53,903 nt of DNA, from the IMG/VR virus record IMGVR_UViG_3300027439_000001, positions 1 through 53,903 of that record; one strand, written 5' to 3'. A program made the translations under genes and the position numbers. The stretch is from a virus. Numbering within the stretch: the stretch's first letter is position 1; each line of letters begins with the position of its first letter. Shown here piece after piece: positions 1-53,903 of the stretch. Below the pieces are notes generated by a model. That model saw nothing but the letters and a program-made list of their open reading frames with translations, was not told the origin of the DNA and did no database searches.

Positions 1-99
1 GGCTGCGTTACCTGCCAGAAGGTCCCGGTCACGGGCGTTGTCGGCATCGTGGCGATAGAGACGGGCTGAGTCGATTGCCAAAACGTTCCGGTTACGGGA
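1..99. repeat. Terminal direct repeat copy A, an exact duplicate of 53805..53903 (contig circular-closure overlap)
   Basis: Direct comparison: bases 1-99 (ggctgcgttacctgccagaagg...ccggttacggga) equal the last 99 bases of the window. Confidence 0.95.
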
Positions 100-368
100 A
101 TCGAAGCGTTCTGGACGTTGACCCAGAGTGCCCCGGAAGTCTCTTGGAGCGGAACGAGGTTGGCCGCCCCATCGTAAGCCTGAATGCCGGTCGATTGCCC
201 CGCTCCTACTGCGGTGTTCCCACTACCGGGTAGCGGAAAGACCGTCGAGGCAGAGATCGTCCCGGTTATAGGGATGGGAACTGCACCCGCAATCCCTTGT
301 ATGGCTAGGGCACTTGCCCCCTGAACTCCGGGCAGATTATATGAGGGGAGCCCCTGATTTAGCGCCAT
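1..368 (-). CDS. N-terminal part of a wrap-around virion protein with PVTGTFW tandem repeats (ATG at 368; continues at 53321..53804 in the circle; 283 aa total)
   Basis: Hand translation of the minus strand from ATG 368 (MALNQGLPSYNLPGVQGAS...IPVTGTFWQSTQPVSIATMPTT) has no stop down to base 1. It is in frame with ORF 53321..53851 once 53805 is equated with 1. Confidence 0.65.
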   Translation of the reverse strand, partial: MALNQGLPSYNLPGVQGASALAIQGIAGAVPIPITGTISASTVFPLPGSGNTAVGAGQSTGIQAYDGAANLVPLQETSGALWVNVQNASIPVTGTFWQSTQPVSIATMPTTPVTGTFWQVTQ

Positions 369-3202: not shown

Positions 3203-4225
3203 TTAAAGATTAAGAAGGTCGTTGCAAGGCCCGTAGAGCCCATTGAGGCGAGGGTTGTCGGTTGCGTTTGCAAGCCCGATCACGTACCGGCAGGTCTTCT
3301 CCAGCACGTTCGGCGTGTCGATCCACGGCACGAAGTCAAAGCCCTTTTCACCGAAGTAACGATACTTCGTGTGGTTGGCATTGACGTAGAAGAAGTTGTA
3401 CCCGATGTTGGTTCCGCTCGCGATGGTATCGAAGTGGTTATCGCCGATCCACTGAGCAGAGAGAAGATGGGGGTTTCCCAAGTACGGGTTGGCCGAATCT
3501 CCCGGCGAGACTCTTACCTGTGAGTCCAGCGTGAACATATAGCTAGAGACGGCTTGCTGATGCCCGAAGATGTGGGTGGGAGAAGCGTCTCCGACTACGC
3601 AGGCTGCCATGTTGCGGAGAATCTGCGATCTTGCAGCATCATTCGACGCGGTGCCAAGACCGCTTGTTGCCAAGACGATCGCCTGCCCTTGCCAATTCGC
3701 GAAAGAGTTGGTCCCGAGTCGCGCGATGTTCGCGTACACATCGAAGACCGCTCCATTGTCACACGCTTCTGGAATACCGACCAGCGGCATACCGTGATTG
3801 GTCGAACGCCCCTTGGTTGCAGAACAGGTGTCCTGACCCAGAAGGTCCGTGATGGAGCCGATGGCCGTCTCGATCTGAACCGTAAGGTTGTCGACCCGCA
3901 TGTTCGGGCCACGCACGAGTTTGACCGTGATGTAGTCGAGGCTGACCGCGGTTTGGTACCACGACCAGGGCATCGACGCTACGGAGTAGAGCGACTGTGG
4001 GCCGCTCGAAAGTGTATCGGACTGGCCGAACGATTCGGCTGTATCGTTCTTCGCCGTTAAGATCGGCAGGGCCAGGAAACGCCCTTCGTCATGCCGCTGC
4101 GCATTGTCCCAACAAACACGAACGATCCGATTGCCGATGAATACGGCGTCAGAAACGTATGGCGCGAACGATTCGGCCAAAATCGAACTCGACTGGTCAA
4201 AGCCGCCTAAACCGCTAGTCGGCAT
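3203..4225 (-). CDS. major capsid protein (candidate)
   Basis: 340 aa; third in a portal / A-E-Q-rich scaffold-like / capsid gene order; AGGAG 8 nt upstream of ATG 4225; no family motif verified. Confidence 0.6.
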   Translation of the reverse strand: MPTSGLGGFDQSSSILAESFAPYVSDAVFIGNRIVRVCWDNAQRHDEGRFLALPILTAKNDTAESFGQSDTLSSGPQSLYSVASMPWSWYQTAVSLDYITVKLVRGPNMRVDNLTVQIETAIGSITDLLGQDTCSATKGRSTNHGMPLVGIPEACDNGAVFDVYANIARLGTNSFANWQGQAIVLATSGLGTASNDAARSQILRNMAACVVGDASPTHIFGHQQAVSSYMFTLDSQVRVSPGDSANPYLGNPHLLSAQWIGDNHFDTIASGTNIGYNFFYVNANHTKYRYFGEKGFDFVPWIDTPNVLEKTCRYVIGLANATDNPRLNGLYGPCNDLLNL

Positions 4226-11283: not shown

Positions 11284-13323
11284 ATGCGCCCCTCCGACGA
11301 AAGGTCCTCCTCGTTGAAGAGTCTCTACGCCCCTAACGAACGTATGAGCGTCCCCGAGTTTTTCGTCAACAAGTACGGCTCGGATACCCCCGAGCCCGGC
11401 CACGAAAACATCTGGCGCGTGGCATTGACCAAGCAAATGCACGACTCGTATGTGTTCACCGCCGAGAACTTTCTGTATATCGCGGACAAAAGCGGCAACC
11501 TGACCACCATGAAGCCCTTTGTCGGACAGGCCATCCTGGACTACACCCTCGACAGCCAACTCCGCAACAACCTTCCTGGACGAGTCGGAGAGGTCAAGGT
11601 TCGGCAGATCGGTTGGACCCTCCGTAACATCGGACGGGGACTGCATTTCTGCCTAGACGAGAACCGCCGTTCGCTGCTCTTGGTAGACGATGAGGACGTG
11701 GCAAACGAACAAGCCACCCGCCTCGGCACGATGCTTAATGGACTACCTGGTTGGATGCAACCGATGCGTCGCATCCAAAATATGAAACATTATGTACTGG
11801 ATAACCCGAACCCAAAAGACCGGCTTGCCAATCCCGGCCTGAACTCGGCCATTCAAATAACCGTTCCGTCGTCTTTCCGTGGCGTCCCGACCGGCTTTGT
11901 GTGCATCATGGAATACGCTCACATGGATTCGCAACGGCAATCGGATGTTATGTCCGGTATCATCTCGGCTATGCCGCTTTCTCCTCACTCCATTCTCATC
12001 ATCGACACGACCCCCGCTGGAATTGATGACTCATATTACCCGATGATTATGGAGGCAATCGAAGATAATCCAAAATGGACGAGACGAATTGAGAATTGGA
12101 AAGGCGAGCTTACCGCTCAAGAAGTCTATGACGGCATCTTAGGCGTCCCCGATACCGTCTCCAAGGGCTATCCGGGAGTAATGATTCCCGCCGTGTGCCC
12201 GTGGAGACTGCACGAAGAGTACGACGTGCGCTCCAAGGTCAATCCAAAAGGCGAAATCAAGAGGCCTTTTAGTAAAGAACAGCAAGCCGAAACTTTGAGC
12301 ACGCTCGGGCAGATCGCAAAGTACGGGGCTGAAGAAGAGTTCGAGTTACGCGATAAGTACGGCGTCTCGCTTTCCCGCCTCTTCTGGCGGCGTCGGAAAA
12401 TAGACGGCTACAAAATGCCGACCGACGAAATGAAACTCCTGACTTTTCGACAGGAGTTCTTCGGCTGCACCATCGCCGAAGCGTTTATTGAATCAGGTTC
12501 TGCGCCATTTGACCGTGCCTCACTCGACACCATCTCTCGTCAGGAGAAAGAGCCTGTAGCAGTCGGACTTTTCAGAGGTGAAGACGAGTTCGACCACCAC
12601 GCAGCAAACCAGTGGCAAGAAATCCGCATCTATGCTCCACCCCAAAACGGCGAGAAATACACGATGGGTGTGGACACAGATATTGCCTACGAGTCACCGG
12701 ACTCCGATGCTACCGTCGCCCAAGTCGTGCGCTTCCGTGACAACAAAATCGTTCTAACCTACGAGGCTCGTGTTCCGTCGTACCTGCTTCGCCAGCAACT
12801 ACTGTTCATCTACCGCTGGTACTTCAACTGCTACTACGCTATAGAAACGATGGGGATAGGCTACGAACTCGTACGAACCTGTATGGACCAGGGGATGAGT
12901 AACGTCCACTACTGGAAACGCTACGACGCCGACTACCCAGAGCCGTCAAAGTATCCCGGCTGGCAGACCGATGCGAAGACTCGGCCCCTCATGGACCAAA
13001 CTTTCACCGAACTCGCCTGCTACCGTAACAGAGAAACTGGCAAACCGGAGCCCGACATCATCATCCCCGACGCTAAGACGATACGCGAGATTCGCGGTCT
13101 GTCGCGAACTCCAACCGGCGCGTACAAGTCCTCACGCGGCAAGGACGATCACTACGATGCGCTGTGCATCGCTCTCTGCATAGCGCGGGATCCGTATTCT
13201 GGTCTGCATCGCAAGAACGAAGAAGAAGAGGCTGAGAAGAAAAAGGAGTTCGAGGAACGGTTTATTGCGATGACTCGGATGGGAGTTTCAGATCGCAACC
13301 ATCCATCTTTGAGTGAATTGTAG
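11284..13323 (+). CDS. terL: terminase large subunit
   Basis: KVRQIGWT (K-x-RQ-x-G-x-T/S Walker-A-type box seen in P2-like terminases), LLLVDDED Walker B, nuclease acidic boxes MGVDTDIA and GKDDHYDALCIA. Confidence 0.8.
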   Translation: MRPSDERSSSLKSLYAPNERMSVPEFFVNKYGSDTPEPGHENIWRVALTKQMHDSYVFTAENFLYIADKSGNLTTMKPFVGQAILDYTLDSQLRNNLPGRVGEVKVRQIGWTLRNIGRGLHFCLDENRRSLLLVDDEDVANEQATRLGTMLNGLPGWMQPMRRIQNMKHYVLDNPNPKDRLANPGLNSAIQITVPSSFRGVPTGFVCIMEYAHMDSQRQSDVMSGIISAMPLSPHSILIIDTTPAGIDDSYYPMIMEAIEDNPKWTRRIENWKGELTAQEVYDGILGVPDTVSKGYPGVMIPAVCPWRLHEEYDVRSKVNPKGEIKRPFSKEQQAETLSTLGQIAKYGAEEEFELRDKYGVSLSRLFWRRRKIDGYKMPTDEMKLLTFRQEFFGCTIAEAFIESGSAPFDRASLDTISRQEKEPVAVGLFRGEDEFDHHAANQWQEIRIYAPPQNGEKYTMGVDTDIAYESPDSDATVAQVVRFRDNKIVLTYEARVPSYLLRQQLLFIYRWYFNCYYAIETMGIGYELVRTCMDQGMSNVHYWKRYDADYPEPSKYPGWQTDAKTRPLMDQTFTELACYRNRETGKPEPDIIIPDAKTIREIRGLSRTPTGAYKSSRGKDDHYDALCIALCIARDPYSGLHRKNEEEEAEKKKEFEERFIAMTRMGVSDRNHPSLSEL

Positions 13324-13609
13324 ACACGTCAACACCCGCTTCTCGGAGTAGGTCTTCAAGGGACGCCAACGCAATCTCGCACTGTACCCTCACTAGTTCT
13401 GCAAGTTGGCTTTTGTCATTTCCACAGCGTTCTATGTCCGAAAGGGAAATCTCAGCAGTTGATTGGGCAGAAGTCTTAGGTGGCGGAAAAACGTCCATCA
13501 CTACGAAGCGCGCCATGTAGTATGGCTCCCTTGTGTATGTTTCCCCGCTTTCCGGGTCTGTCCAGGTTGAGGGCGCAACGAACACCCACGGAATAAACTC
13601 AATTTCCAA
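13262..13609 (-). CDS. hypothetical protein (last gene of the leftward block)
   Basis: 115 aa ORF; start overlaps the stop of 13599..14126; its 3' end overlaps the convergent terL by 62 nt. Confidence 0.45.
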   Translation of the reverse strand: MEIEFIPWVFVAPSTWTDPESGETYTREPYYMARFVVMDVFPPPKTSAQSTAEISLSDIERCGNDKSQLAELVRVQCEIALASLEDLLREAGVDVSTIHSKMDGCDLKLPSESSQ

Positions 13610-14126
13610 GCGAGTAGTCCATCTGGTCCTCGTGTTTCATCTTCTTGAAGTCCATGAACCAGCTTTGCTTCTCTGACGCAGCCTCAATGAGCGCCAGTTC
13701 CTCTGCGTGTGTCGGAGAAGATGGGTCGAGCCAAAAGAACGTCGGCTCCCACAGTTTCGGGATGATCTCGCGTAAGAACGTCATGGCGTCTCCATCGTAT
13801 ATCTCGAAGTCAGGGAACCTTCTGGCAATCTCCGCCGCGTATTCGGTGTCTGACTCGCAAGCGTAGCCGGTGAGTTGCAGGCGGGCCGCAGCGTCCATCC
13901 CAGCCATGCTCCTGTTAGACTGCGGCTCTACAAAGAACTTGATCCCCTTCTGGGCTACGAGATTCGCAAGCGGCATGAAACTGGCTGGTTCTTGCACGTT
14001 TTTCTCATCTGGAACAGCAAGAATATCATCTAGGCGTTTAATGACATCGTGCCACGAACGCGACCCGCTACTTAGGTCGTTCCGCAATTCCTGCACCTTG
14101 GAACGAAGAGTATCCGGCTGCGTCAT
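13599..14126 (-). CDS. methyltransferase-like protein, degenerate paralog of 14123..14695
   Basis: 175 aa; shares the FFWLD(P/A) block (TFFWLDPSS vs VFFWLDAHF) and layout with its neighbour, but the glycine motif is degenerate. Confidence 0.35.
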   Translation of the reverse strand: MTQPDTLRSKVQELRNDLSSGSRSWHDVIKRLDDILAVPDEKNVQEPASFMPLANLVAQKGIKFFVEPQSNRSMAGMDAAARLQLTGYACESDTEYAAEIARRFPDFEIYDGDAMTFLREIIPKLWEPTFFWLDPSSPTHAEELALIEAASEKQSWFMDFKKMKHEDQMDYSLGN

Positions 14127-14695
14127 TTTGGTTCCTTCGGGGTGAAGCGTAAGACCGTACCAACGATCAAGGCGGTGTGCGTGTCAAGAAAAGGGGAAAC
14201 GTATTCCACGATTGGGTGAGTAGTATCCCCCGGCCAAACCGTTCCATCGGGGAGATCGAATCCTACGCGCTGGTCCCTTATCGGGTTGAGCGGGTCGGCG
14301 ACGTGCTGCATATCGTCGCACCATATCACGTCTCGCGAACAGTCTCGATTGTCTCTAAGCGTTTCTAGTTCGGCAAAGAGCGGCCAGAGATAAACGCCGC
14401 TATCTGAAAAGTGGGCATCTAGCCAAAAGAACACAGACTCTCTCATGGACTGTTTACAGACGTTTCTTAAAAAGGCGGTACTCTCCATTTGAACGACAAT
14501 GGCTTCGGGATACATTGTACTAGCGTTCTCCACACACGCCTCAGACACGTCGCATGAATACGCCGATAGTCCCATAGCATCGGCAACCCGCAAGCCGTGC
14601 GAGTTCTTTCCGGTTCCGGTCTCTACGAGATAACCGAATCCAAACCGCTTTTGAAGCGACTTGATCTCGGGCAGGAAGTCGGTAAGGTCAGACAC
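14123..14695 (-). CDS. putative class I SAM-dependent methyltransferase
   Basis: 190 aa; YLVETGTGKNSHG resembles SAM motif I; FFWLDAHF block. Confidence 0.45.
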   Translation of the reverse strand: MSDLTDFLPEIKSLQKRFGFGYLVETGTGKNSHGLRVADAMGLSAYSCDVSEACVENASTMYPEAIVVQMESTAFLRNVCKQSMRESVFFWLDAHFSDSGVYLWPLFAELETLRDNRDCSRDVIWCDDMQHVADPLNPIRDQRVGFDLPDGTVWPGDTTHPIVEYVSPFLDTHTALIVGTVLRFTPKEPK

Positions 14696-15335
14696 TTAAG
14701 TACCTCCGGGCTAGTTCGATTCTTCGCTCATACGGCAGGCCCGCAAAATGCAGGATCCAGTCCCCCTCCTCATACTCGCTCCAAGGGTACAGATAGATCG
14801 GGTACTCTTTGCGGAGGTAACTGTTCATCGTTCTCTGCGGCATGATACGGCACAAGTCCCGGTTTACCGTGACGAACGCATTGAGAATGGGCTGGTCCTT
14901 GTTCATATTCGGGTTCTTGGTCGCGTCGGCGTAGATGTCGTCCCTCAACGCCCAGTCCAAGAACTCAATGGTTTCCGGGCAGTGTTCCATGAGAAAGACG
15001 CCGGAGTTCACACTTGGTACCCCGTCGTTCTGCCCATCGCGAGTTATGGTCAGAACCTTTGGGCCGTCGATGCGGTCGATCAGAGCCTCGACCTTGGAGG
15101 TCGGGTTCATAAAGAGTGCATCGCAGTCAATCCACAATACCGCATCGTGCTTCTCGATCAGCATCCTTACCAGCCTGAACTTATCGTAGGGCTGCCACCC
15201 TTCCCGCATATCGAACACTCCGTTGTACCCATGCCGGCGACAGTACGCCTCTTTGTTCGGCACGGTCAGTTCTGCGAGTTCTTGGAAATTAGGAGTATGG
15301 AAACTGCACACGGCGATCTCAAATGCGGACGGCAT
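14688..15335 (-). CDS. GT-A fold (DxD) glycosyltransferase, paralog 1 (Mnn10/Gma12- or DUF273-like layout)
   Basis: NKEAYCRRHGY, WIDCDALFMN (DxD), NSGVFLM, LHFAG. Confidence 0.6.
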   Translation of the reverse strand: MPSAFEIAVCSFHTPNFQELAELTVPNKEAYCRRHGYNGVFDMREGWQPYDKFRLVRMLIEKHDAVLWIDCDALFMNPTSKVEALIDRIDGPKVLTITRDGQNDGVPSVNSGVFLMEHCPETIEFLDWALRDDIYADATKNPNMNKDQPILNAFVTVNRDLCRIMPQRTMNSYLRKEYPIYLYPWSEYEEGDWILHFAGLPYERRIELARRYLSV

Positions 15336-15972
15336 GAAACGACCCCGACATCGGCGGCGGAGTCGGAGGACGAAACTGCGTGTGGAAGCCCACGTCTTGT
15401 AAGTATTGCTGAAGCGTAAGGTAGTCGTAGTTCGGGTGCCTGGGATTCTGTCTCAGTCCCCAATAGGTCCGAGAAGGCTGGTGGTACTCGCCGATAATCT
15501 CTTGAATCTGTCTAAACATCACATCTGGAAGTGAGTAGAGAATCTCCCACTCCGAACCTTCAACGTCGATCTTGAGGTACCGCACGTTGCCTACACTGCA
15601 AATGAGTTCATGCAGAGTGATCGTCTCCACATCCACCGTTTCGTGTTCCTGGATAAAGAAACTGTTGTTGCCAACTGGGAAAGGCAAGAAGTCCGGGTTA
15701 TGGTCGCCCACCACGGCCTTGTGGTAGAGGTGTACCCCTTCAAGCGCGCCGACGTTCATGTTTGCAATCGCAATGTTCTGCGGACACGCCTCGAATGAAT
15801 AGATGCTCCGGGAGCCTTGGTCCCATGCTTTCATGGTGAACGCCCCGATGTTAAGGCCGATGTCGAGAACCGTATCGTTAGACGTGAACTTGGGGACGCG
15901 GTACTCGTCATTGGTGTAAACACTCTTCCAGCAAGACTCATCACCCGTCCCTAGACGAAAGGTGTAGGTCAC
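15319..15972 (-). CDS. FkbM-family methyltransferase
   Basis: VLDIGLNIGAFT (SAM motif), SFEACPQN, YLKIDVEGSEWEIL; this order is typical of FkbM-type methyltransferases. Confidence 0.65.
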   Translation of the reverse strand: MTYTFRLGTGDESCWKSVYTNDEYRVPKFTSNDTVLDIGLNIGAFTMKAWDQGSRSIYSFEACPQNIAIANMNVGALEGVHLYHKAVVGDHNPDFLPFPVGNNSFFIQEHETVDVETITLHELICSVGNVRYLKIDVEGSEWEILYSLPDVMFRQIQEIIGEYHQPSRTYWGLRQNPRHPNYDYLTLQQYLQDVGFHTQFRPPTPPPMSGSFHAVRI

Positions 15973-16742
15973 GCCTTTGCCAGAGCACGCGCAGAGAACT
16001 CACGCATCTTCGCGAGCTTCTCCTCAAACGACATACCGGGGAAAGTCACGATCCAGTCGCTCGGTTTGTAGTCTTGCCACTTGTAGCAGATGCCCACACT
16101 CTCGGCCTCAAAGCAGTTCCCGAAGGTCGCGCTGAATGGGGGGATACCCATGAGGTCGCGCATGGAGTCTTGGTCGGAGATACCGCCAAGTTCGATCTTT
16201 CCGTGGCGCACGTTGTTCTCGGTCTTGGCTCGTTCGTAGGCGAAGCGCAGATGGCGTTCGGTTGTATCGTCGGTACGGGCTATGAGGAGGGACGAGTTCG
16301 GGCCGTTCTCATCGTATGTCCAAAGGAAAGAAGACAGGTCCCCCACGTAGGGACTTTCTTTGTTCGATAGCACGGACTCAATTCGCACATCCGTGTTCAT
16401 TATGATCGAGTCGACGTCCAGGTACATGACCACATCGAACAGCCCACGAATGTCGTAGTAGAGTTTGAACTTCTCCCGATCGCCGTCTACAATATCTGTC
16501 CCTGAGTCCTCGTAGGCTCCGGGGAACATCCTTAGCGCGTACTTGTGGCGTTCGCAGTACGCTTGCCAGTTCGCTTCAGCAATCTCTGCAATCGAGTCGT
16601 ACTTGCGGTTGTAGTAGCCGTACAGGCAGACCTTAAAGCCTGGAAGCGGCTTGTCGTCGTCCCAACCATAGATGTTCTTGCGGATGAGCCCTATGCCTGA
16701 GATGAACCACTCGGCTCTGCTCTGCGGGCGGATGATTCTCAT
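15969..16742 (-). CDS. GT-A fold (DxD) glycosyltransferase, paralog 2
   Basis: NWQAYCERHKY, YLDVDSIIMN (DxD), WIVTFPG. Confidence 0.55.
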   Translation of the reverse strand: MRIIRPQSRAEWFISGIGLIRKNIYGWDDDKPLPGFKVCLYGYYNRKYDSIAEIAEANWQAYCERHKYALRMFPGAYEDSGTDIVDGDREKFKLYYDIRGLFDVVMYLDVDSIIMNTDVRIESVLSNKESPYVGDLSSFLWTYDENGPNSSLLIARTDDTTERHLRFAYERAKTENNVRHGKIELGGISDQDSMRDLMGIPPFSATFGNCFEAESVGICYKWQDYKPSDWIVTFPGMSFEEKLAKMREFSARALAKA

Positions 16743-17005
16743 AGACCTGGACTCAATGCCCCCTCTTCGTGGAATCGTGCGTCGTAGTACGGCCTGTCAG
16801 GGTACACCGGAAACGGGCCCTCTTTCTTGCCGCGAATGGATGGGAACGGAACGCCGTGCGACATGCTCGCCACGCTGCGCGCCTCCTCCGGTTCTACATG
16901 AGGATTCTTCTTCAGCCACTCTCCAAGTGCATCCGAAGATTCGAGACAGTAGCCGTGAACGCGGCGGATCTCCGAAGCGAGCCCCCCTTTTTCTGAGCGA
17001 GTCAT
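16739..17005 (-). CDS. hypothetical protein inside the glycosylation island
   Basis: 88 aa; ATGA overlaps at both ends. Confidence 0.5.
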   Translation of the reverse strand: MTRSEKGGLASEIRRVHGYCLESSDALGEWLKKNPHVEPEEARSVASMSHGVPFPSIRGKKEGPFPVYPDRPYYDARFHEEGALSPGL

Positions 17006-17175
17006 GTACTTGAATCTTTCTTCGACGAATCATCCGAGGAGTAGCTAAAGGCGACAAGCACAATGAGAACAATGCTCGACACGAACACTCCCATCCATTC
17101 CCATAAGTGAAAACTCGCAACAACCACCACGGCCGCAAGCAACCAATTCCCTATGTTGTCGATTACCTTGTTCAT
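17002..17175 (-). CDS. 57-aa two-helix membrane peptide inside the glycosylation island
   Basis: Hand translation: MNKVIDNIGNWLLAAVVVVASFHLWEWMGVFVSSIVLIVLVAFSYSSDDSSKKDSST; ATGA overlaps at both ends; below the ORF-track cut-off. Confidence 0.6.
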   Translation of the reverse strand: MNKVIDNIGNWLLAAVVVVASFHLWEWMGVFVSSIVLIVLVAFSYSSDDSSKKDSST

Positions 17176-17813
17176 GTAGCCTTCGCTGCGTACTCGCGCA
17201 AGGTATTCGAGCGAGTAGGTTCTTCTACACCGGCCAGGTGGAGCACAAAGTCTCCCGGCTCATATTGATTAACGTAGTTCCCGTACTCTCCGAAGTCCCA
17301 GCCTTTCAAGGCATAGAGGTTGCAGTTGAAAACTTTACCCGGAACCTCTCTGTAGATTTCCTTGTGCGGAGACTTAATAGCCGTCTGGATGAGCCCCTCT
17401 TGATCTGCCCAGCCTGATACTATGCTCATTGAGGTAGCGACCGTCATAAACAGCATAGCCTCAGGAGAGAAGCGGGCAATGAATACGCCGCTGTTTAGCC
17501 CGTTGACGTCGGTGCCGATAAGGTAGTGAATACTGCGCGGCATCATCCAGTACACAATGTCGGTGATCTTCTTGTCAGAGTTCATTATGATCGCGTCTGT
17601 ATCGACCCAAACGAACACATCGTCTGCCCCGTACCTTCCGGTTTTGTACGCCTCTTGGTATAAAGAAACTTTACAGGCATCTTTATCCGTGCGGTTCTGG
17701 TCGTACAGGAAGTCGTAGTCCCATTTTTCACAGTAGCGTTCAAGGCTCGGGCGCGTGATGTCCGCAAGGCTTTGGTACTCCGGACCGTGCGCGGTACACA
17801 TAACCACCTTCAC
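17172..17813 (-). CDS. GT-A fold (DxD) glycosyltransferase, paralog 3
   Basis: SLERYCEKWDY, WVDTDAIIMN (DxD), NSGVFIA, LHLAG. Confidence 0.6.
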   Translation of the reverse strand: MKVVMCTAHGPEYQSLADITRPSLERYCEKWDYDFLYDQNRTDKDACKVSLYQEAYKTGRYGADDVFVWVDTDAIIMNSDKKITDIVYWMMPRSIHYLIGTDVNGLNSGVFIARFSPEAMLFMTVATSMSIVSGWADQEGLIQTAIKSPHKEIYREVPGKVFNCNLYALKGWDFGEYGNYVNQYEPGDFVLHLAGVEEPTRSNTLREYAAKAT

Positions 17814-18505
17814 AGCAGTTTGTGATCGTCAACGAATGCAGTAGCCATCTTAATGCGCGCTTCCAAAGTAAGTGCCGATAAGTGCAGCGACCACGAGGTT
17901 TCATCCCACTCGTACTGAGAACGAATGTCTGGGGGAATGGGGTACACTCCGGGCGGCATAGCGCACAGTTCTTTGGCCGAGTAGTAGCGCATGAGTTTGT
18001 CGTAAGGAGGCGTGGCAGAGAAGAAGCGTAAACAAAGATTGTCTGACCAGTCGTGTGTTGCGAAAAGGGTGCGGCCGGCGGAATTGCAAGCCCACATAAG
18101 TCCGCGTGTCAGCAAAGAGTTCCGCACGATGATAACGGTCGGGTGCAAGGCGTTCACGTCCCAGGCCGTTACCACGTCCCCAAGCCAGGTTGAAAGTGGG
18201 AGGTCGTAGCGTGACACGATGCAATCAGAGTCAATCCAGGCCACCGTATCGTACTCCTTGAGGCAGGAGTTCTTGTCCAGGTAATGTTCGAGAAGGGCGA
18301 ACTTGATGAAGTAGCGGGTCGGCCAGTACCCTGACTTTGGCTGATCGGTCCAGGGGGACTTTAGGGGCATCGACGTCTCGGAGCAATCTGCGAAAAACTC
18401 GTATCCTTGCGCCTCGCAGTATTTCCGCATCGTCGCCGTAGTAATATCGGCCAAACCTTGCCAGGCTGGGGGAAACGAAGTTAGCAGCAAGGTACGCTCG
18501 CTCAC
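17810..18505 (-). CDS. GT-A fold (DxD) glycosyltransferase, paralog 4 (GTG start preferred; ORF is open to 18541)
   Basis: TMRKYCEAQGY, WIDSDCIV (DxD); GTG 18505 forms a GTGA overlap with the upstream stop, the genome-wide pattern. Confidence 0.5.
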   Translation of the reverse strand: MSERTLLLTSFPPAWQGLADITTATMRKYCEAQGYEFFADCSETSMPLKSPWTDQPKSGYWPTRYFIKFALLEHYLDKNSCLKEYDTVAWIDSDCIVSRYDLPLSTWLGDVVTAWDVNALHPTVIIVRNSLLTRGLMWACNSAGRTLFATHDWSDNLCLRFFSATPPYDKLMRYYSAKELCAMPPGVYPIPPDIRSQYEWDETSWSLHLSALTLEARIKMATAFVDDHKLL

Positions 18506-19395
18506 CCGCGAGCCCGCATCTGTTGCAGAGATATGGCGCATCTGAGATCATAAGCGTGGTTCACCATCTCGTGCGGGAAGTGCCAATCCGAAGAATGGTC
18601 TTGGCAGAACTGCGTGTCCCGATAACCAACTCCTGAAAAAACGTAGCCACGGTCATTGTGGGTCTGCGGAGTTATACACACTCTGACTTCAGGCCGCACG
18701 TCGTACTCTGTCGCTAGATGCTCTCCGCGAACCGCCGCAGCAAGGGACTGCCCACCGGCTTCGGAGCCAATCCATCCTCTACAAGCCGCAAGCATATCGA
18801 GGTACATATAGATTCCATCCACTTGCACCGATTCGCACGCAATCTCGGCTGGGTGCAAGGAAGCCCACTTCGGCATGAGGAGTTGAAGGAAAGGGGCGTT
18901 GCGAAACTTGCCTTTCATCGCACGCATAAACTCCGAGATTCCCTTGTTGTCAATCTGCGACGATGTAGCGGAGAAGTCTAGGAGTACGTGCTGCGAAAGG
19001 TCGATGTGAAACGGCTTCGGAGCGTAGTTGATATACGGGGCGATTGAATACGGTGGGGGGAGTCCGTGCGCGCGTTCCATCGCCTCAATCGAACCGCTCT
19101 CATCGAAGCGGTTGGCAACCTCATAGAAGAGGCCCTGGCGCACATATCCGGCGTTTGCTTTACGGTCGGTCAGCCCGTCGATGTAGGGGTTACGCATCCA
19201 GAAGGCTTCGAGGATCTGATCGTTGCGGGCCCCGATGTCTTTGTCGATGTATACTTTGCGCCCGATATCTTTGAAACGCTTGGGGAGCGTACTATAGATT
19301 GCATGATCCCCCAAACCTACCAAGTTGTGAGTCGTGAGCACAACATCGCCTTCTGGCAACGCGATGTTGCCCTGCAAATCCACAATCGGTTTCAT
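18502..19395 (-). CDS. GT-B glycosyltransferase, GT9 (heptosyltransferase)-like
   Basis: N-terminal LVGLGDHAIYSTLPKRFK and C-terminal WIGSEAGGQSLAAAV resemble the GT9 GD-x-(I/V) and DSG-x-x-HLAAA boxes. Confidence 0.45.
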   Translation of the reverse strand: MKPIVDLQGNIALPEGDVVLTTHNLVGLGDHAIYSTLPKRFKDIGRKVYIDKDIGARNDQILEAFWMRNPYIDGLTDRKANAGYVRQGLFYEVANRFDESGSIEAMERAHGLPPPYSIAPYINYAPKPFHIDLSQHVLLDFSATSSQIDNKGISEFMRAMKGKFRNAPFLQLLMPKWASLHPAEIACESVQVDGIYMYLDMLAACRGWIGSEAGGQSLAAAVRGEHLATEYDVRPEVRVCITPQTHNDRGYVFSGVGYRDTQFCQDHSSDWHFPHEMVNHAYDLRCAISLQQMRARG

Positions 19396-19757
19396 AGAAC
19401 TCTGCCGGTGTTCGTTTCAACGAGTACGTTGCGGTCGTCCCAAAACTCAACCATCCAGCGGTGTTTGGTTGCCGTCACGTAGAGCCGTTCGCCGATGTGC
19501 TTCTCACACCACGCATGCACCCTGGCGTACACCTCGGGGTCCGTCTCCTCAGCAACACGGGAAGTGAAGATGCAGACCACATCCCCCTTGGCAAGCCACT
19601 CCTTCACCCTTGTAACCATCGCAGGTATGGGCTCGCCGATGTGCTCTCTTCCCCTCCACTTATCGTAGAAGGCTAACGTACCGTCGAGGTCGACGGCTAA
19701 AAATCTGCGGCCTTTAACGGGAGGCTTACGGACGATGCCCTGCTGGTCCGCCGTCAC
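19392..19757 (-). CDS. small HAD-superfamily phosphatase
   Basis: FLAVDLDGTLA (DxDxT motif I), CIFTSR (motif II S/T); 121 aa. Confidence 0.5.
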   Translation of the reverse strand: MTADQQGIVRKPPVKGRRFLAVDLDGTLAFYDKWRGREHIGEPIPAMVTRVKEWLAKGDVVCIFTSRVAEETDPEVYARVHAWCEKHIGERLYVTATKHRWMVEFWDDRNVLVETNTGRVL

Positions 19758-19951
19758 TCCTCCTCCGATTCTTCAGGATGCGGTTTCGGTAAGTCCTCAG
19801 ACGCCCAGCGTTCCGGGATCAGAATCGGCCCTTCGCCCCTTTGGCCGCGCAACCAAACACGCCCGGCACGACTGCCCTTTACAACGGCAACGAACGGCTC
19901 TGGAGGGGTAACGAGAACCTTTGTCCCGATCTTCACTCTATTCTTTCCCAA
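19754..19951 (-). CDS. hypothetical protein with acidic tail
   Basis: 65 aa; ATGA overlap downstream. Confidence 0.5.
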   Translation of the reverse strand: MGKNRVKIGTKVLVTPPEPFVAVVKGSRAGRVWLRGQRGEGPILIPERWASEDLPKPHPEESEEE

Positions 19952-20598
19952 TCTCCGTCGTCGTTACGTCGCACTCGAATACCGTTGACCCGTGCAAGAA
20001 TGTCAATCTGCCCAACGATACGGTACTCGCGGCCCACGATTTTCAGAGCGCGCCCTTTCGCATTGTGGTCAATTAGAACAACGTCGCCCGGTTTGAAGAA
20101 CATGGGAACGTCGGCGGGAACGCGCGTCAATAAATCTCCCATTGGCGCGCCATGAGGACCCTGTTTCGTCACGGCAACGCCCGGATCTGGCAATCCGAGA
20201 AGATGCCCGTTCCCAGCGGTTATAATAATCCCCGCAATCACGCCTCGGCGCTCAATCGTTGGGTCAGCCTGCGGGTGACTGTCGGGGATCTCCCGCCCGT
20301 ATTCATCTTTTTGCGGCACCGGCTGGGTGATAACCAGCAGTGAACCAAGTTCAATGGTTTCATCGAAATCTATCGCCTCAATGCAATAGCGATCCCCATT
20401 AGGCTCAATGTCTTCCGGTTTGATCTCATGTATTTTTAGCTGGACGCGCGGCTTCGTTGCAGCCAAGAGTGCACGGGCTTTCGGGTCTATCATGTTCTCT
20501 CTAGTCTCCGGCCCAAGGGCCAAGGGCATTGAACCACCAGAAGGCGTCTCGCCCGACTGGTGTACTGAGTACAAGTACGATAACCAGAATGAGCGCAA
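19933..20598 (-). CDS. GroES/Gp31-like co-chaperonin with enlarged loop (start uncertain: M1, M24 or M36)
   Basis: Aligns by eye to GroES: IKPEDIEPNGDRYCIEA, RRGVIAGIIITAGNGHLLG, FKPGDVVLIDHNAKGRALKIVGREYRIVGQIDILARV. Confidence 0.5.
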   Translation of the reverse strand: MRSFWLSYLYSVHQSGETPSGGSMPLALGPETRENMIDPKARALLAATKPRVQLKIHEIKPEDIEPNGDRYCIEAIDFDETIELGSLLVITQPVPQKDEYGREIPDSHPQADPTIERRGVIAGIIITAGNGHLLGLPDPGVAVTKQGPHGAPMGDLLTRVPADVPMFFKPGDVVLIDHNAKGRALKIVGREYRIVGQIDILARVNGIRVRRNDDGDWERIE

Positions 20599-50236: not shown

Positions 50237-52516
50237 TTATGTTCCAAGGCAGTTGAACATGAGGTTTGCCGTTCCGCTGACAAGAGTCAGACCGACCACG
50301 GTTCCCGTCACACTCGTGTTCGACGTATTCACAACCGTTGTTCCCGACGCCGAGCCCGTGAGAGAGTCCCCGTTCGTCGAATAGCTCATTCCACAAGCGT
50401 AGCTCGTCGCAGACGTATACGCAACGGTTGCCGAGCAAGTAATGAGTCCGGCAGAAGAATCGGCGCACGTTGCAAACGTAGGGAATCCGGCAACCGTTGT
50501 GACTCTCCCGGAAAATGAGCCGGTCGTCGCCGTCGTAATCGGCCCACCCGCAGCGACTCCAACGAATGTACCGAGCCCAGCGTTACTAATTTTAGCAACA
50601 GCGACGTTGTTGACTGCAAACGTAAATCCATTTGTCGAGCCGGTTGGGACGTTGAGTTGCAAGCCTTTGGTAGCGGCGTTATCGTTAGCTGCGTAGACGT
50701 TGGTGCCACCTGGAACCGCGGCGGCTACAAAGATATTCCCAATGGACGAAAGCTGTCCCGCTATTCCGACATCACCTGAGGTATCAATGGCAAGCATAGA
50801 CAGCACACCAGGAGTACGCATTTCCAAGAACGTCGATGAAACGCCGCTTACCGTTTGGGCGCTCGCACCGTAAAGCGCGCCGACTTGCGTACCGCCTCCA
50901 GCGAGTCCCCAAACCAAAAGAGTATTGTTCCATGCCGATCCACGAGTGCCAAGGTTTAAGCCAAGGCCAAAGTTTGCCTGAACCGTGCCACCATCCCCGA
51001 AGTTACCATTCGTCGCGTTCACCTGACTCGCCGTGAGTGTCCCCATCGAGAAGTTTCCAGAGCTATCGCGAGCCACGATAGTCGAGGCGGTGTTCGCGCT
51101 TGTCGCGTCAGTCGTGAGCGAAATTGCCGCACTCCCGTTATACGCGCCACCTGCGAGATGAGTACCAGGCGTCAGGCTAAAGAGGTTCGAGCCAAGAGCA
51201 ACGCCAGAGATGGTCGAGTTTGAGAGCGCGCTATTCGGAATTGAGGTTAGGTTTGCGCCGGACCCGGAGAACGTCGTGGCTGTAGCGGTACCTGTTACGG
51301 TAAGTGCTCCGGTTGCAACCGCCCCAGTGGTCGTTATGGTTCCACCAGTCTTTAGGTTGATCGAACCATTGTCACCAAACCACGTTAGGCCAGCCCCTGC
51401 TTCTATGGTCGGTAGGCTAGCACTACAGCACGTTTGATAGGCGTAGATGACATCGTTCGTTGTTACGCCTCCGGTTAGACCAGTGCAAAAAGCCGTGCCT
51501 TTCGCAAGAACCGAGACAGCAGGTGACGTACTGCCAAGATAATCATGTATGTAGATCGCATTAGAGTTGCAGCTAAGGAGGACCCCCGCTCCAGTGCCTC
51601 CTGAGGTAACTGAGCCCCATGATCTATAGAGGGAAACGGTATCGGATTCGTCGTTTGCGGTAACTCCGCCACCAAACTTGAAACCGTTTCCGTTTGTGAC
51701 GGTTACGTGAGAGTCCAGTACAAGGGAATTATAGGAACCGTCGAACCAAATACCATTTCCAGCAGCCGCTAGGTTCAATCCGTTTATACTCTGGAACGTT
51801 TGGTAGGATGAACCACCAATAGTAAGGCGAGAATCAAACGTAGACCAAATAACATTCGCGCTGAAGTTTCCATCTGACACGAAGGTGATATTTTTGAAGG
51901 TCTGAAGCCACCCACCCTTTGTAACAACGCCATTTGCCGCGGAGCCAGCGTTAGATTTTAGTTCAACATTTGAGAGGCCTCCGCCGTAAGGATTGCAGGT
52001 GACGCATGGGCTCGCCCCCGCAATCCAGGTGATGATCGTTCCGCCTGCTGACCCGTCATATTTCAATGCCGTTCCAGTTGTCGGAAGTGTAGAGTCAACC
52101 GGCGACGAGACGCCAGCCCCTTGGATGAAGACATTGTTGTAGTTCACGGCAAGACCGTGGACATTGCAAGTTCCGGGAGGCAGGACAACGGTACCGCCCG
52201 ATGCAGTTCCGGCAGTATTTATCACAGCTTGAATCGCCGCCGAATCTGAAGATGCTCCAGCACAGGGGGTAGTGACCTGATAATAATTTAGGGATCCTTG
52301 CCCAAAGCAGGATCCGCCTCCAACGAGCGTCCCAGAGCCATTCGAGGAAAGGCATGGTTCATTCGGGAGCGATGAAAACGTGGGTGCGCCAGCAAACGTA
52401 GCTGTACCGCCGGCGGGAACGTTGATCGAGCCTGTATAGAGCGGGATGGTTGCGCTAGAGACAACGCCGATGCTGACCAAGAACGCGAAGACCCCCGCAA
52501 CAACGAAACGCCTCAA
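50237..52516 (-). CDS. beta-helix (pectate-lyase-like) fibre/depolymerase with signal-peptide-like N-terminus
   Basis: SDSAAIQAVINTAGTASGGTVVLPPGTCNV (pectate_lyase_3-type opening), fibre-type repeats (IVARDSSGNFSMGTLTA), N-terminus (M)RRFVVAGVFAFLVSIGVVSSA; TTG start in a TTGA overlap. Confidence 0.6.
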   Translation of the reverse strand: MRRFVVAGVFAFLVSIGVVSSATIPLYTGSINVPAGGTATFAGAPTFSSLPNEPCLSSNGSGTLVGGGSCFGQGSLNYYQVTTPCAGASSDSAAIQAVINTAGTASGGTVVLPPGTCNVHGLAVNYNNVFIQGAGVSSPVDSTLPTTGTALKYDGSAGGTIITWIAGASPCVTCNPYGGGLSNVELKSNAGSAANGVVTKGGWLQTFKNITFVSDGNFSANVIWSTFDSRLTIGGSSYQTFQSINGLNLAAAGNGIWFDGSYNSLVLDSHVTVTNGNGFKFGGGVTANDESDTVSLYRSWGSVTSGGTGAGVLLSCNSNAIYIHDYLGSTSPAVSVLAKGTAFCTGLTGGVTTNDVIYAYQTCCSASLPTIEAGAGLTWFGDNGSINLKTGGTITTTGAVATGALTVTGTATATTFSGSGANLTSIPNSALSNSTISGVALGSNLFSLTPGTHLAGGAYNGSAAISLTTDATSANTASTIVARDSSGNFSMGTLTASQVNATNGNFGDGGTVQANFGLGLNLGTRGSAWNNTLLVWGLAGGGTQVGALYGASAQTVSGVSSTFLEMRTPGVLSMLAIDTSGDVGIAGQLSSIGNIFVAAAVPGGTNVYAANDNAATKGLQLNVPTGSTNGFTFAVNNVAVAKISNAGLGTFVGVAAGGPITTATTGSFSGRVTTVAGFPTFATCADSSAGLITCSATVAYTSATSYACGMSYSTNGDSLTGSASGTTVVNTSNTSVTGTVVGLTLVSGTANLMFNCLGT

Positions 52517-53320: not shown

Positions 53321-53903
53321 CTAAAGCGGGGCGGGTCCGCCGTAACCTGGGTCGCTACGCATGAGTTCGAGATTTTTGTAACTCGAGTTGAGGCCATCCA
53401 TGAGAATGGCGTTCTGAATCCTAATTTCTACTAGCGTTGCGAGCATGAGGTCACGAGTCGTATTGTCCGCTGTGATTTGCTCGCCGGAACTGGAAACGAA
53501 GGCAGTATTCAGGGGGAAGTTCGGGTCCGACATTGAGATGTCTACGTCGTCCGAATCGCTCGCCATAGTAACGGGAACTGAGGCGCTTTTGGTGGTCTGC
53601 CCGAGTGCTAGAGACGCGCCTCCAACCTGAGTCACATTGACCGACTGATTCGCCGGCAATGCTTGCTGCGTGAAACTCACCGGGAGAGCCCCTTGGTCCG
53701 AAGCCACCGTAACCGGAACGCTGTTTGCCATAACATTCGTCCCGAGCGAATACGGCCAAAAGGTGCCCGTTACCGGGGTTGAGGGCATCGAGGCTATAGA
53801 TACCGGCTGCGTTACCTGCCAGAAGGTCCCGGTCACGGGCGTTGTCGGCATCGTGGCGATAGAGACGGGCTGAGTCGATTGCCAAAACGTTCCGGTTACG
53901 GGA
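53321..53903 (-). CDS. C-terminal part of the wrap-around virion protein (see 1..368)
   Basis: ORF track shows 53321..53851; the reading frame stays open to the window end and continues in frame at 100..368. Confidence 0.65.
   Translation of the reverse strand, partial: PVTGTFWQSTQPVSIATMPTTPVTGTFWQVTQPVSIASMPSTPVTGTFWPYSLGTNVMANSVPVTVASDQGALPVSFTQQALPANQSVNVTQVGGASLALGQTTKSASVPVTMASDSDDVDISMSDPNFPLNTAFVSSSGEQITADNTTRDLMLATLVEIRIQNAILMDGLNSSYKNLELMRSDPGYGGPAPL
53756..53902 (-). repeat. 2.3 tandem copies of a 63-nt (21-aa) unit inside the wrap-around gene
   Basis: PVTGTFWQSTQPVSIATMPTT / PVTGTFWQVTQPVSIASMPST / PVTGTFW; the units are clearly diverged at nucleotide level. Confidence 0.8.
53805..53903. 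repeat. Terminal direct repeat copy B (identical to 1..99)
   Basis: Direct comparison with the first 99 bases. Confidence 0.95.

Follow-up and report, generated by a model that had tools for sequence, protein, structure and literature searches.

Glycosylation of virions is established for giant algal viruses and has more recently been recognized in tailed phages, the mycobacteriophages, where it alters antibody recognition. In the chlorovirus PBCV-1, domain 1 of the protein A064R (A064R-D1), a GT-A glycosyltransferase with a GT34-like fold, acts on a glycan acceptor and builds the glycan of the major capsid protein; a rhamnosyltransferase domain 2 and a methyltransferase domain 3 follow in the same protein, A061L is a further methyltransferase, and the terminal sugars are O-methylated (PMC9614988). 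The mycobacteriophages Che8, Corndog and Myrna, as summarized in PMC12363180 from Freeman et al. 2023 (Cell Host Microbe 31:1216), add sugars to proteins of the capsid and tail tube with glycosyltransferases of their own. In other phages several GT-A and GT-B enzymes of the phage's own work one after another and make di- and trisaccharides (Pyle et al., bioRxiv 10.1101/2023.12.21.572611). Phage clusters of several glycosyltransferases and self-glycosylation by viruses are already known kinds of system. Here we describe a glycan cassette in IMGVR_UViG_3300027439_000001, the 54-kb genome of an uncultivated phage from soil or peat, analyzed as a single stretch of 53,903 nucleotides (nt) that we call the window; the cassette takes up 11.4% of the genome:

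13599-19757, minus strand: glycan cassette, an uninterrupted row of eleven open reading frames (ORFs).

This cassette is new in its enzyme set, consisting of an unclassified GT9-like family, three to four GT34-like proteins, an FkbM-family methyltransferase and methyltransferases of class I, and in being a core module of a previously undescribed clade of podophages; new, too, is a link to chlorovirus A064R-D1 that profile comparison supports statistically. We think it quite plausible, and put it forward tentatively, that these soluble enzymes glycosylate virion proteins, with initiation by the GT9-like protein, extension by the GT-As and capping by methylation. The GT9-like GT-B would put the first sugar on a phage structural protein, after which GT-A4, GT-A3 and GT-A2, and in this genome GT-A1, would add sugars singly by DxD/metal-dependent chemistry; the FkbM protein and a class I methyltransferase of 190 amino acids (aa) would O-methylate, and so cap, the glycan, with a 175-aa paralog of the latter as a presumably non-catalytic accessory domain. 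Virion proteins would in this way gain a coat of methylated oligosaccharide, which could alter surface properties such as adsorption, stability or recognition. What the analysis itself shows is the families and folds of the enzymes, their kept catalytic motifs, their conservation and synteny, the domain fusions found in nature, and the lack of machinery that the competing readings need; we infer the order of action, the virion-protein acceptor, the sugar as methylation target and the biological benefit. With slightly more reserve we propose the wider picture: a widespread clade of soil and peat podophages, possibly infecting Vulcanimicrobiota, may coat its virions with a phage-built, methyl-capped hetero-oligosaccharide that a previously unclassified GT-B, distantly related to GT9, initiates and GT-As homologous to A064R-D1 extend.

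A first-pass annotation of this DNA had concluded that the phage can assemble and methylate an oligosaccharide. This is reasonable, since its enzyme assignments, made from motifs alone, were largely upheld by Pfam, TIGRFAM, profile and structure comparisons, and natural fusions join the same domains. All ORFs and motifs that it quoted lie on the minus strand where it had placed them, and its six spot GC (guanine plus cytosine) counts of 60-nt lines were reproduced exactly; its statement that all genes are joined by 4-nt overlaps applies to eight of the 12 gene junctions, the remaining overlaps being 8, 17, 19 and 40 nt.

The four DxD-containing glycosyltransferases are as follows:

14688-15335, minus strand: GT-A1, a GT34-type protein of 215 aa with the motif WIDCDALFMN (PF05637 E 1.7e-17, 64.4 bits against a cut-off of 23).
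15969-16742, minus strand: GT-A2, a protein of 257 aa with the motif YLDVDSIIMN (Pfam GT34 E 0.68, 10.1 bits, below the cut-off of 23).
17172-17813, minus strand: GT-A3, a GT34-type protein of 213 aa with the motif WVDTDAIIMN (PF05637 E 6.9e-8, 33.0 bits against a cut-off of 23).
17810-18541, minus strand: GT-A4, a protein of 243 aa as listed, its true start probably lying downstream of the listed one, with the motif WIDSDCIV (Pfam GT34 E 0.11, 12.7 bits, below the cut-off of 23).

The paralogy of these four proteins, claimed in the first-pass annotation, is real: BLASTP connects them (GT-A1/A3 1e-19, A1/A2 2e-15, A2/A3 2e-9, A3/A4 5e-9, A1/A4 3e-6), the GT-A2/GT-A4 pair solely through the other paralogs, and residues Y31, C32, Y37, D70 and D72 (GT-A1 numbering) are invariant across all four. 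Only GT-A1 and GT-A3 pass the gathering threshold of the Pfam GT34 family (PF05637, Gma12/Mnn10/XXT); GT-A2 and GT-A4 are tied to GT34 only via paralogy and a joint family profile. This profile, made from the four paralogs and orthologs from related contigs (28 members), has an almost invariant DxD, and its best match among all PDB sequences is A064R-D1 (2p6w, E 1.7e-7); next come XXT5, XXT2 and XXT1, GT34 xylosyltransferases of plants (1e-3 to 3e-3). The phage DxD aligns with the WLDSD of A064R-D1 and with the WMDSD of the XXT enzymes. We conclude that, as judged from sequence, the four proteins are true paralogs of GT34 type, and the match to 2p6w argues for a GT-A fold. We place them as extenders because GT34 enzymes, like A064R-D1, act on glycan acceptors.

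The set of GT-As differs between this genome and its relatives. GT-A4 orthologs occupy the same position in about 20 loci (35-50% identity), where the gene is the kept partner directly after the GT9-like gene; GT-A3 orthologs are 35-77% identical, and GT-A2 orthologs also occur in relatives. No ortholog of GT-A1 was found in relatives, its best match being to GT-A3 orthologs at no more than 30% identity, and GT-A1 is an extra copy particular to this genome. Single-sequence scans of IMG/VR with GT-A3 and with the GT9-like protein found nothing.

Like the PBCV-1 enzymes, the phage proteins are virus-encoded, predicted to be soluble and cytoplasmic, and include a GT34-like DxD GT-A. Both systems also couple a glycosyltransferase to a methyltransferase, by fusion within A064R and by fusion of GT-A2 to FkbM in two loci related to the phage cassette (527 aa in L004, 488 aa in L014), although the A064R-D3 methyltransferase is described as class I S-adenosylmethionine (SAM)-dependent and not specifically as FkbM. 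PBCV-1 differs in being a giant virus of a eukaryotic host whose glycan is N-linked on Vp54, and in having no GT9-like GT-B partner. If our proposal holds, the cassette would be a bacterial-virus counterpart of the autonomous glycosylation of giant viruses, and homology would connect the glycan enzymes of phages and chloroviruses.

The candidate initiating enzyme lies beside GT-A4:

18502-19395, minus strand: predicted GT9-like GT-B glycosyltransferase of 297 aa, assigned by AlphaFold2 and Foldseek.

This protein has no match in Pfam (E<=1), NCBIfam or PHROG. Its AlphaFold2 model, built from 45 homologs (predicted local distance difference test, pLDDT, 93.6; predicted template modeling score, pTM, 0.91), has the two Rossmann domains of a GT-B fold with GT9 enzymes as its closest structures. 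In Foldseek searches of the PDB the nearest structures are all GT9 (3tov, TibC, WaaC and WaaF; E 3e-6 to 1e-3), led by 3tov at 3e-6 and the protein O-heptosyltransferase TibC (4rb4/4rap) at 6e-6 and weaker, and the top 21 matches are all GT9 with E from 3e-6 to 5e-4 and template modeling (TM) scores of 0.43-0.52. The top matches in BFVD are uncultured-phage proteins labeled 'RfaF', 'Aah/TibC' and 'GT9'. Residues G27, G29, D30, E212, G214 and A219 are invariant or nearly so, and an N-terminal GLGD (G-x-G-D, LVGLGDHAIYSTLP) and a C-terminal SEAGGQSLAAA are conserved. Compared by eye only, these motifs resemble the 'GD' and 'D-S-G-x-x-H-x-A-A-A' signatures of GT9, which read GGFGDLLFLTP and PDSSLLHVAGALG in a canonical GT9 of another phage contig (L038, described below); the N-terminal GD of the GT9 signature provides the catalytic Asp in WaaC.

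Membership of GT9 fails at the level of sequence: PF01075 matched neither the 297-aa protein nor any of 10 distant relatives scanned, and hhalign of the GT9-like profile against the canonical PF01075 protein gave a probability of 0.2%, which is not significant. We therefore treat the 297-aa protein as a putative GT9-like GT-B family of its own, outside Pfam; the earlier call of a GT9-like GT-B stands for the modeled fold and falls for formal family membership. Metagenomes contributed 127 close homologs of the protein, many of which sit on contigs of 44-53 kb, and the family counts 534 cluster representatives at E<=1e-3, which would offer CAZy-type classification a defined new glycosyltransferase family. 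WaaC, WaaF and TibC/Aah share the GT-B fold and are its top structural neighbors, but the phage protein is shorter than GT9 heptosyltransferases (297 aa, and about 240 aa in many of its relatives) and lacks the TibC-type Cys cluster. The resemblance to GT9 suggests heptose as a possible donor sugar, and no heptose-pathway genes are present in the window. Distant family members are fused to RmlD or lie within deoxysugar clusters, so the donor may differ from ADP-heptose; these fusions and neighborhoods suggest 6-deoxyhexose donors by analogy.

Three further ORFs relate to methylation:

15319-15972, minus strand: FkbM-family SAM-dependent methyltransferase of 217 aa (PF05050 and TIGR01444).
14123-14695, minus strand: class I SAM methyltransferase-like protein of 190 aa with the motifs VETGTG and FFWLDA.
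13599-14126, minus strand: truncated paralog of the 190-aa protein, 175 aa, with the motif FFWLDP.

The FkbM assignment, already made from motifs, is secure as a match to family profiles, with both PF05050 (E 6e-12, 46.4 bits against a cut-off of 22.7, profile positions 1-171 of 173) and TIGR01444 (E 1e-15, 58.5 bits against 37.7) over their cut-offs and a match to the methyltransferase family phrog_8156 (3.5e-15); orthologs occur in at least seven relatives. The 190-aa protein has no Pfam match. Its AlphaFold2 model (pLDDT 90.1) gave 393 Foldseek matches in the PDB at E<=1e-3, and the 50 listed are all SAM-dependent enzymes of class I fold, nearly all methyltransferases, including AzeJ (4e-7), HemK and the sugar methyltransferases TylM1, DesVI and KijD1, which act on nucleotide sugars. 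With a Rossmann-like fold, a glycine-rich motif I, an acidic residue after strand 2, and conserved E-T-G-x-G, C-D-V/I and WLDAH motifs, the modeled protein has the features of a class I SAM methyltransferase fold.

The 175-aa protein is its paralog (BLASTP 2e-9); it reads VEPQSN and DPS where ETGxG and DAH would be expected, and its C-terminal third is missing together with the strands there, so that it has neither the glycine-rich motif I nor the complete seven-strand core of class I enzymes. Its orthologs in two relatives (L001 and L032) likewise are without motif I and the C-terminal third. Given these losses the 175-aa paralog is probably non-catalytic, a catalytically dead copy; of the two methyltransferase-like paralogs proposed earlier, the larger thus keeps its class I fold and the smaller has probably lost activity. 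L002, one of the relatives, has a hexapeptide-repeat acyltransferase (PF00132; 6799-7260) at the variable cassette end, which suggests that the glycan decoration, methyl or acetyl, differs among clade members.

Natural (Rosetta-stone) fusions indicate that the parts of the cassette belong to one pathway. Besides the GT-A2+FkbM fusions, a 175-aa ortholog is fused to the N-terminus of FkbM in L001 (349 aa), and the wider GT9-like family includes the fusions GT34+GT9-like, FkbM+GT9-like, GT2+GT9-like, RmlD+HAD+GT9-like and TPR+GT9-like. The RmlD and FkbM fusions lie in clusters rich in deoxysugar and sugar-methyltransferase genes, and the neighbor of the TPR fusion, in a bacterial setting, is a TPR-GT41 (OGT-like) gene. 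A canonical PF01075 GT9 and a 475-aa GT34+GT9-like fusion are found at 6626-9428 of L038, a 47.8-kb contig of an unrelated phage whose portal is of SU10 type; they lie a short way downstream of the portal gene. The canonical GT9 of L038 has a CxxC...C...C cysteine cluster reminiscent of the TibC iron finger, and one gene called on the same contig encodes 6,656 residues.

The TibC-like and TPR-fused relatives are glycosyltransferases that act on proteins of the cell, the cassette enzymes are soluble, and the gene row of the cassette starts at the early/late divergent region; on these grounds the enzymes could instead modify a protein in the host cytoplasm, or produce a glycoside that is a free small molecule, in the service of host takeover or metabolic rewiring. 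We find this doubtful, because a series of four to five transferases with methyltransferases for capping points to a defined oligosaccharide, something unusual for takeover effectors, and because the cassette is linked to morphogenesis genes in this clade and its counterpart in L038 to the portal.

Remodeling of a host envelope glycan (lipopolysaccharide (LPS) core, O-antigen, S-layer or other) from its cytoplasmic face is a stronger competitor, although still unlikely in our judgment. It would mask receptors, so that superinfecting phages would not adsorb to infected cells, nor released progeny to infected cells or debris. The GT9 structural neighbors WaaC and WaaF act as heptosyltransferases on the LPS core; O-antigen and glycolipid clusters typically hold GT-As and methyltransferases of FkbM type and of class I; distant GT9-like members lie within deoxysugar/methyltransferase glycan clusters; and the enzymes are soluble, like peripheral glycosyltransferases of the inner leaflet. 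The cassette nevertheless encodes no flippase, polymerase, GtrA/GtrC-like or membrane protein except a 57-aa peptide that is absent from relatives, and it is embedded among morphogenesis genes and kept as a core module. A Gtr seroconversion module consists of a GtrA flippase, the GT2 enzyme GtrB and a membrane GtrC on a temperate phage with an integrase. Here the cassette has no multi-pass membrane proteins, and Pfam scans of 57 larger ORFs genome-wide, 10 further large ORFs and, between 21 and 37 kb, all ORFs of 75 aa or more on either strand matched neither GT2 nor an integrase, which makes a role in lysogenic seroconversion unlikely. Known seroconverting phages are temperate, no integrase or lysogeny module was detected here, and a lytic cycle leaves a surface change little time to reach the cell surface. 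PADLOC gave no matches, and a defense or superinfection-exclusion system was rejected on the same result.

Where the cassette lies bears on its acceptor, and we therefore compared 36 related loci fetched from metagenomes, metagenome-assembled genomes (MAGs) and IMG/VR. About 30 of the 36 share the order of the recovered genes: g111, g194, the GroES-like gene, (HAD), GT9-like, GT-A4, GT-A3, g88 and GT-A2, then a variable tail (FkbM, a methyltransferase of the 190-aa type, hexapeptide acetyltransferase), then the opposite-strand terminase, g247 and the portal. Glycosyltransferases are 35-77% identical to those of relatives and terminase and portal 59-76%, ranges that we describe as similar. The cassette is missing from two relatives that stand further off (L034 and L035; terminase 44-47% identical); there the terminase is co-directional, between g194 and the GroES-like gene. 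The genes that flank the cassette in the window are:

11284-13323, plus strand: large terminase (context), directly downstream of the cassette, assigned by tblastn to annotated terminase large subunits.
19933-20598, minus strand: GroES-like co-chaperonin (context, outside the glycan machinery), directly upstream of the cassette.

The terminase is inverted within an otherwise minus-strand morphogenesis row, and the inversion is kept in all cassette-bearing relatives. We conclude that a clade of uncultivated podophages of about 50-54 kb carries the cassette as a syntenic core module, not as a recent import; the two relatives without the cassette and with a co-directional terminase indicate that the module is ancestral and was passed on vertically, its acquisition being probably a single event, deep in the lineage, that went along with the inversion of the terminase.

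The rarity that had been ascribed to the cassette is not upheld, since the gene order recurs in about 30 relatives. The particular arrangement looked for, four GT-As with FkbM, GT9 and HAD, recurs in its core order, while GT-A1 is particular to this genome and the position of HAD is not fixed. The low GC content that had been read as a sign of horizontal acquisition does not carry that meaning: the cassette has 54.1% GC against 58.3% for the rest of the genome and falls within the lowest 5% of windows of the same size, but the lowest windows also span the terminase (53.9%), and the dip is common to terminase and fiber-like genes. Recent horizontal transfer was rejected on this modest, shared dip and on synteny in about 30 relatives, and chimeric assembly because the gene order recurs in independent samples, because four contigs, the longest of 53,945 nt, have a 190-aa protein identical to that of the window, and because the window has a terminal repeat. 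At least 50 nt of the window start are found again at position 53804 (window 1-100 against 53804-53903), which shows that the window is a complete genome. Two readings fit the repeat: a direct repeat of the termini, or an overlap left by the assembly of a genome that is circular or terminally redundant.

Several lines of evidence favor virion proteins as the acceptor. The cassette lies within the morphogenesis region, between the GroES-like co-chaperonin and the terminase and portal; the GT9-like protein resembles TibC, and TPR fusions are typical of protein glycosyltransferases; the GT-As are homologous to the capsid-glycan enzyme A064R-D1; the arrangement in L038 is parallel; no lysogeny genes were detected; and mycobacteriophages set a precedent (PMC12363180). 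None of the cassette enzymes has a hydrophobic segment (maximum Kyte-Doolittle <1.6), so the pathway would be cytoplasmic and its acceptor reached from the cytoplasm.

Other observations weigh against a virion acceptor. No acceptor signature was found among the structural proteins compared: the major capsid candidate (3203-4225, 340 aa) is 70-81% identical in cassette-bearing and cassette-less relatives, and between these two groups neither it nor the portal has a clade-specific extension. Proteins rich in serine and threonine are present (50237-52516, 25% S+T), yet such composition is usual for tail fibers. The long leftward gene row to which the cassette belongs begins near 23.1 kb, at a divergent region, and scans for promoters and terminators that would define a transcription unit stayed at chance level. 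In structure the GT9-like protein is moderately similar to GT9 (TM about 0.5), its membership at the sequence level fails, and GT9 and FkbM are classically envelope-glycan enzymes. The cassette-bearing and cassette-less sister phages offer a natural comparison for locating the acceptor.

The function we propose equals that of the mycobacteriophage enzymes, for which it was shown experimentally. Those mycobacteriophages differ in being siphoviruses and myoviruses of Actinobacteria with other glycosyltransferase families; PHROG scans of the cassette proteins matched no glycosyltransferase family. Some mycobacteriophages have fewer glycosyltransferases per cassette, Maravista, a relative of Che8, being reported with two. 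If virion glycosylation holds here, the trait would be present in an unrelated, environmentally common podophage clade with a different enzyme set, drawn from families that had not been connected with this little-studied phage trait. The clade would then be only the second lineage of phages in which virion glycosylation is experimentally tractable, and the first such lineage of podophages. The compact set of soluble, co-evolved glycosyltransferases and sugar methyltransferases might also be of use in glyco-engineering.

Proximity to the terminase can be read another way, since known DNA-modification clusters can adjoin terminase or structural genes. The phage DNA would then be hypermodified with a short, possibly methylated glycan on hydroxymethylated pyrimidines, as protection against host nucleases, and there are phage GT-A and GT-B enzymes, repurposed from LPS-type enzymes, that put mono- to trisaccharides, including heptose, on 5-hydroxymethylcytosine (5hmC) (bioRxiv 10.1101/2023.12.21.572611). 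Those clusters, however, need an enzyme that generates 5hmC or 5-hydroxymethyluracil (5hmU), either a ThyS homolog or a C5-cytosine methyltransferase with 5mYOX, and our Pfam scans (57 larger ORFs genome-wide, 10 further large ORFs and, between 21 and 37 kb, all ORFs of 75 aa or more) found no thymidylate-synthase-like hydroxymethylase, TET/JBP (5mYOX) or C5-cytosine methyltransferase; nor were DNA polymerase or nucleotide-metabolism genes found. The enzyme families differ as well, being JGT/TarP-like GT-A and T4 beta-GT-like GT-B in Pyle et al., who judged contigs with glycosyltransferases and without ThyS or 5mYOX to be unlikely DNA modifiers (bioRxiv 10.1101/2023.12.21.572611). With these prerequisites missing from the scans we disfavor DNA glycosylation and consider it very improbable.

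Three ORFs of the cassette stand outside the proposed enzymatic steps:

16739-17005, minus strand: conserved cassette protein of 88 aa with the motifs PFPSI and PYYDAR.
17002-17175, minus strand: predicted two-helix membrane peptide of 57 aa (maximum Kyte-Doolittle value of 2.21 in a 19-residue window).
19392-19757, minus strand: minimal cap-less HAD phosphatase of 121 aa with the motif DLDGT.

Orthologs of the 88-aa protein sit between GT-A3 and GT-A2 in at least 11 relatives (36-76% identity); it matches no Pfam, NCBIfam or PHROG family and may be an adaptor or specificity factor of the pathway. The predicted 57-aa peptide has no homolog in related loci by tblastn and is an addition particular to this genome; its ORF has a GC content of 46%. 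The HAD protein has all four superfamily motifs, I (DxDGT), II (S/T), III (K/R) and IV (DD), and residues D23, D25, T27, T65, K98, D107 and D108 are invariant or nearly so in 37 homologs. Its profile matches 1xpj (6.6e-5) and the phosphatase domain of T4 polynucleotide kinase (1.8e-3) in the PDB, and PF25109 (HAD_PNKP) matches seven of the 37 homologs, the window protein itself falling under the Pfam and NCBIfam cut-offs. In several relatives the gene varies in position or is absent near the cassette. We conclude that the protein is a genuine minimal HAD, as first read, but of PNKP type and only loosely associated with the cassette, not an integral part of it. A GmhB-type heptose phosphatase, prompted by the phrog_1238 label 'phosphoheptose isomerase', is not supported, as the closest structures are 1xpj and the phosphatase domain of T4 polynucleotide kinase rather than a sugar-phosphate phosphatase, and the position is not fixed.

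Among the flanking genes, the GroES-like protein was missed by Pfam alone. It has both the N-terminal and C-terminal GroES motifs, and its profile (14 orthologs) matches Thermus GroES in the PDB (4v4o_O 5.7e-5; 1wnr 6.2e-5). The gene is kept upstream of the cassette in relatives and would give a small podophage a co-chaperonin of its own, comparable to T4 gp31. Between the terminase and those of known phages identity is only 22-24%; its start lies only 8 nt from the divergent g247 start (11275), and the portal and capsid genes lie downstream, past the antisense terminase.

The cassette DNA has no match among GenBank phages, and literature searches found no description of such a cassette. Among 185,579 species genomes only two matches were found, L005 (JBEKBR010000026.1) and L006 (CAVTCS010000006.1), contigs binned in Vulcanimicrobiota/Eremiobacterota MAGs (Ca. 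Aquilonibacter (SPRUCE isolate) and Ca. Eremiobacteraeota). One of the two, 51.9 kb long, has the same protein matches as the IMG/VR viral contig L036, which is of nearly equal length (51,861 nt). The two binned contigs give a weak hint that the host phylum is Vulcanimicrobiota (Eremiobacterota).

To the right of the cassette, much of the region from about 21 to 37 kb is a plus-strand gene row that begins at about 23.2 kb. Pfam matches in this region are ERF, RusA, a PD-(D/E)XK nuclease, two HNH endonucleases and endonuclease VII, together with GIY-YIG, an AlkZ-like DNA glycosylase domain and DUF7336.

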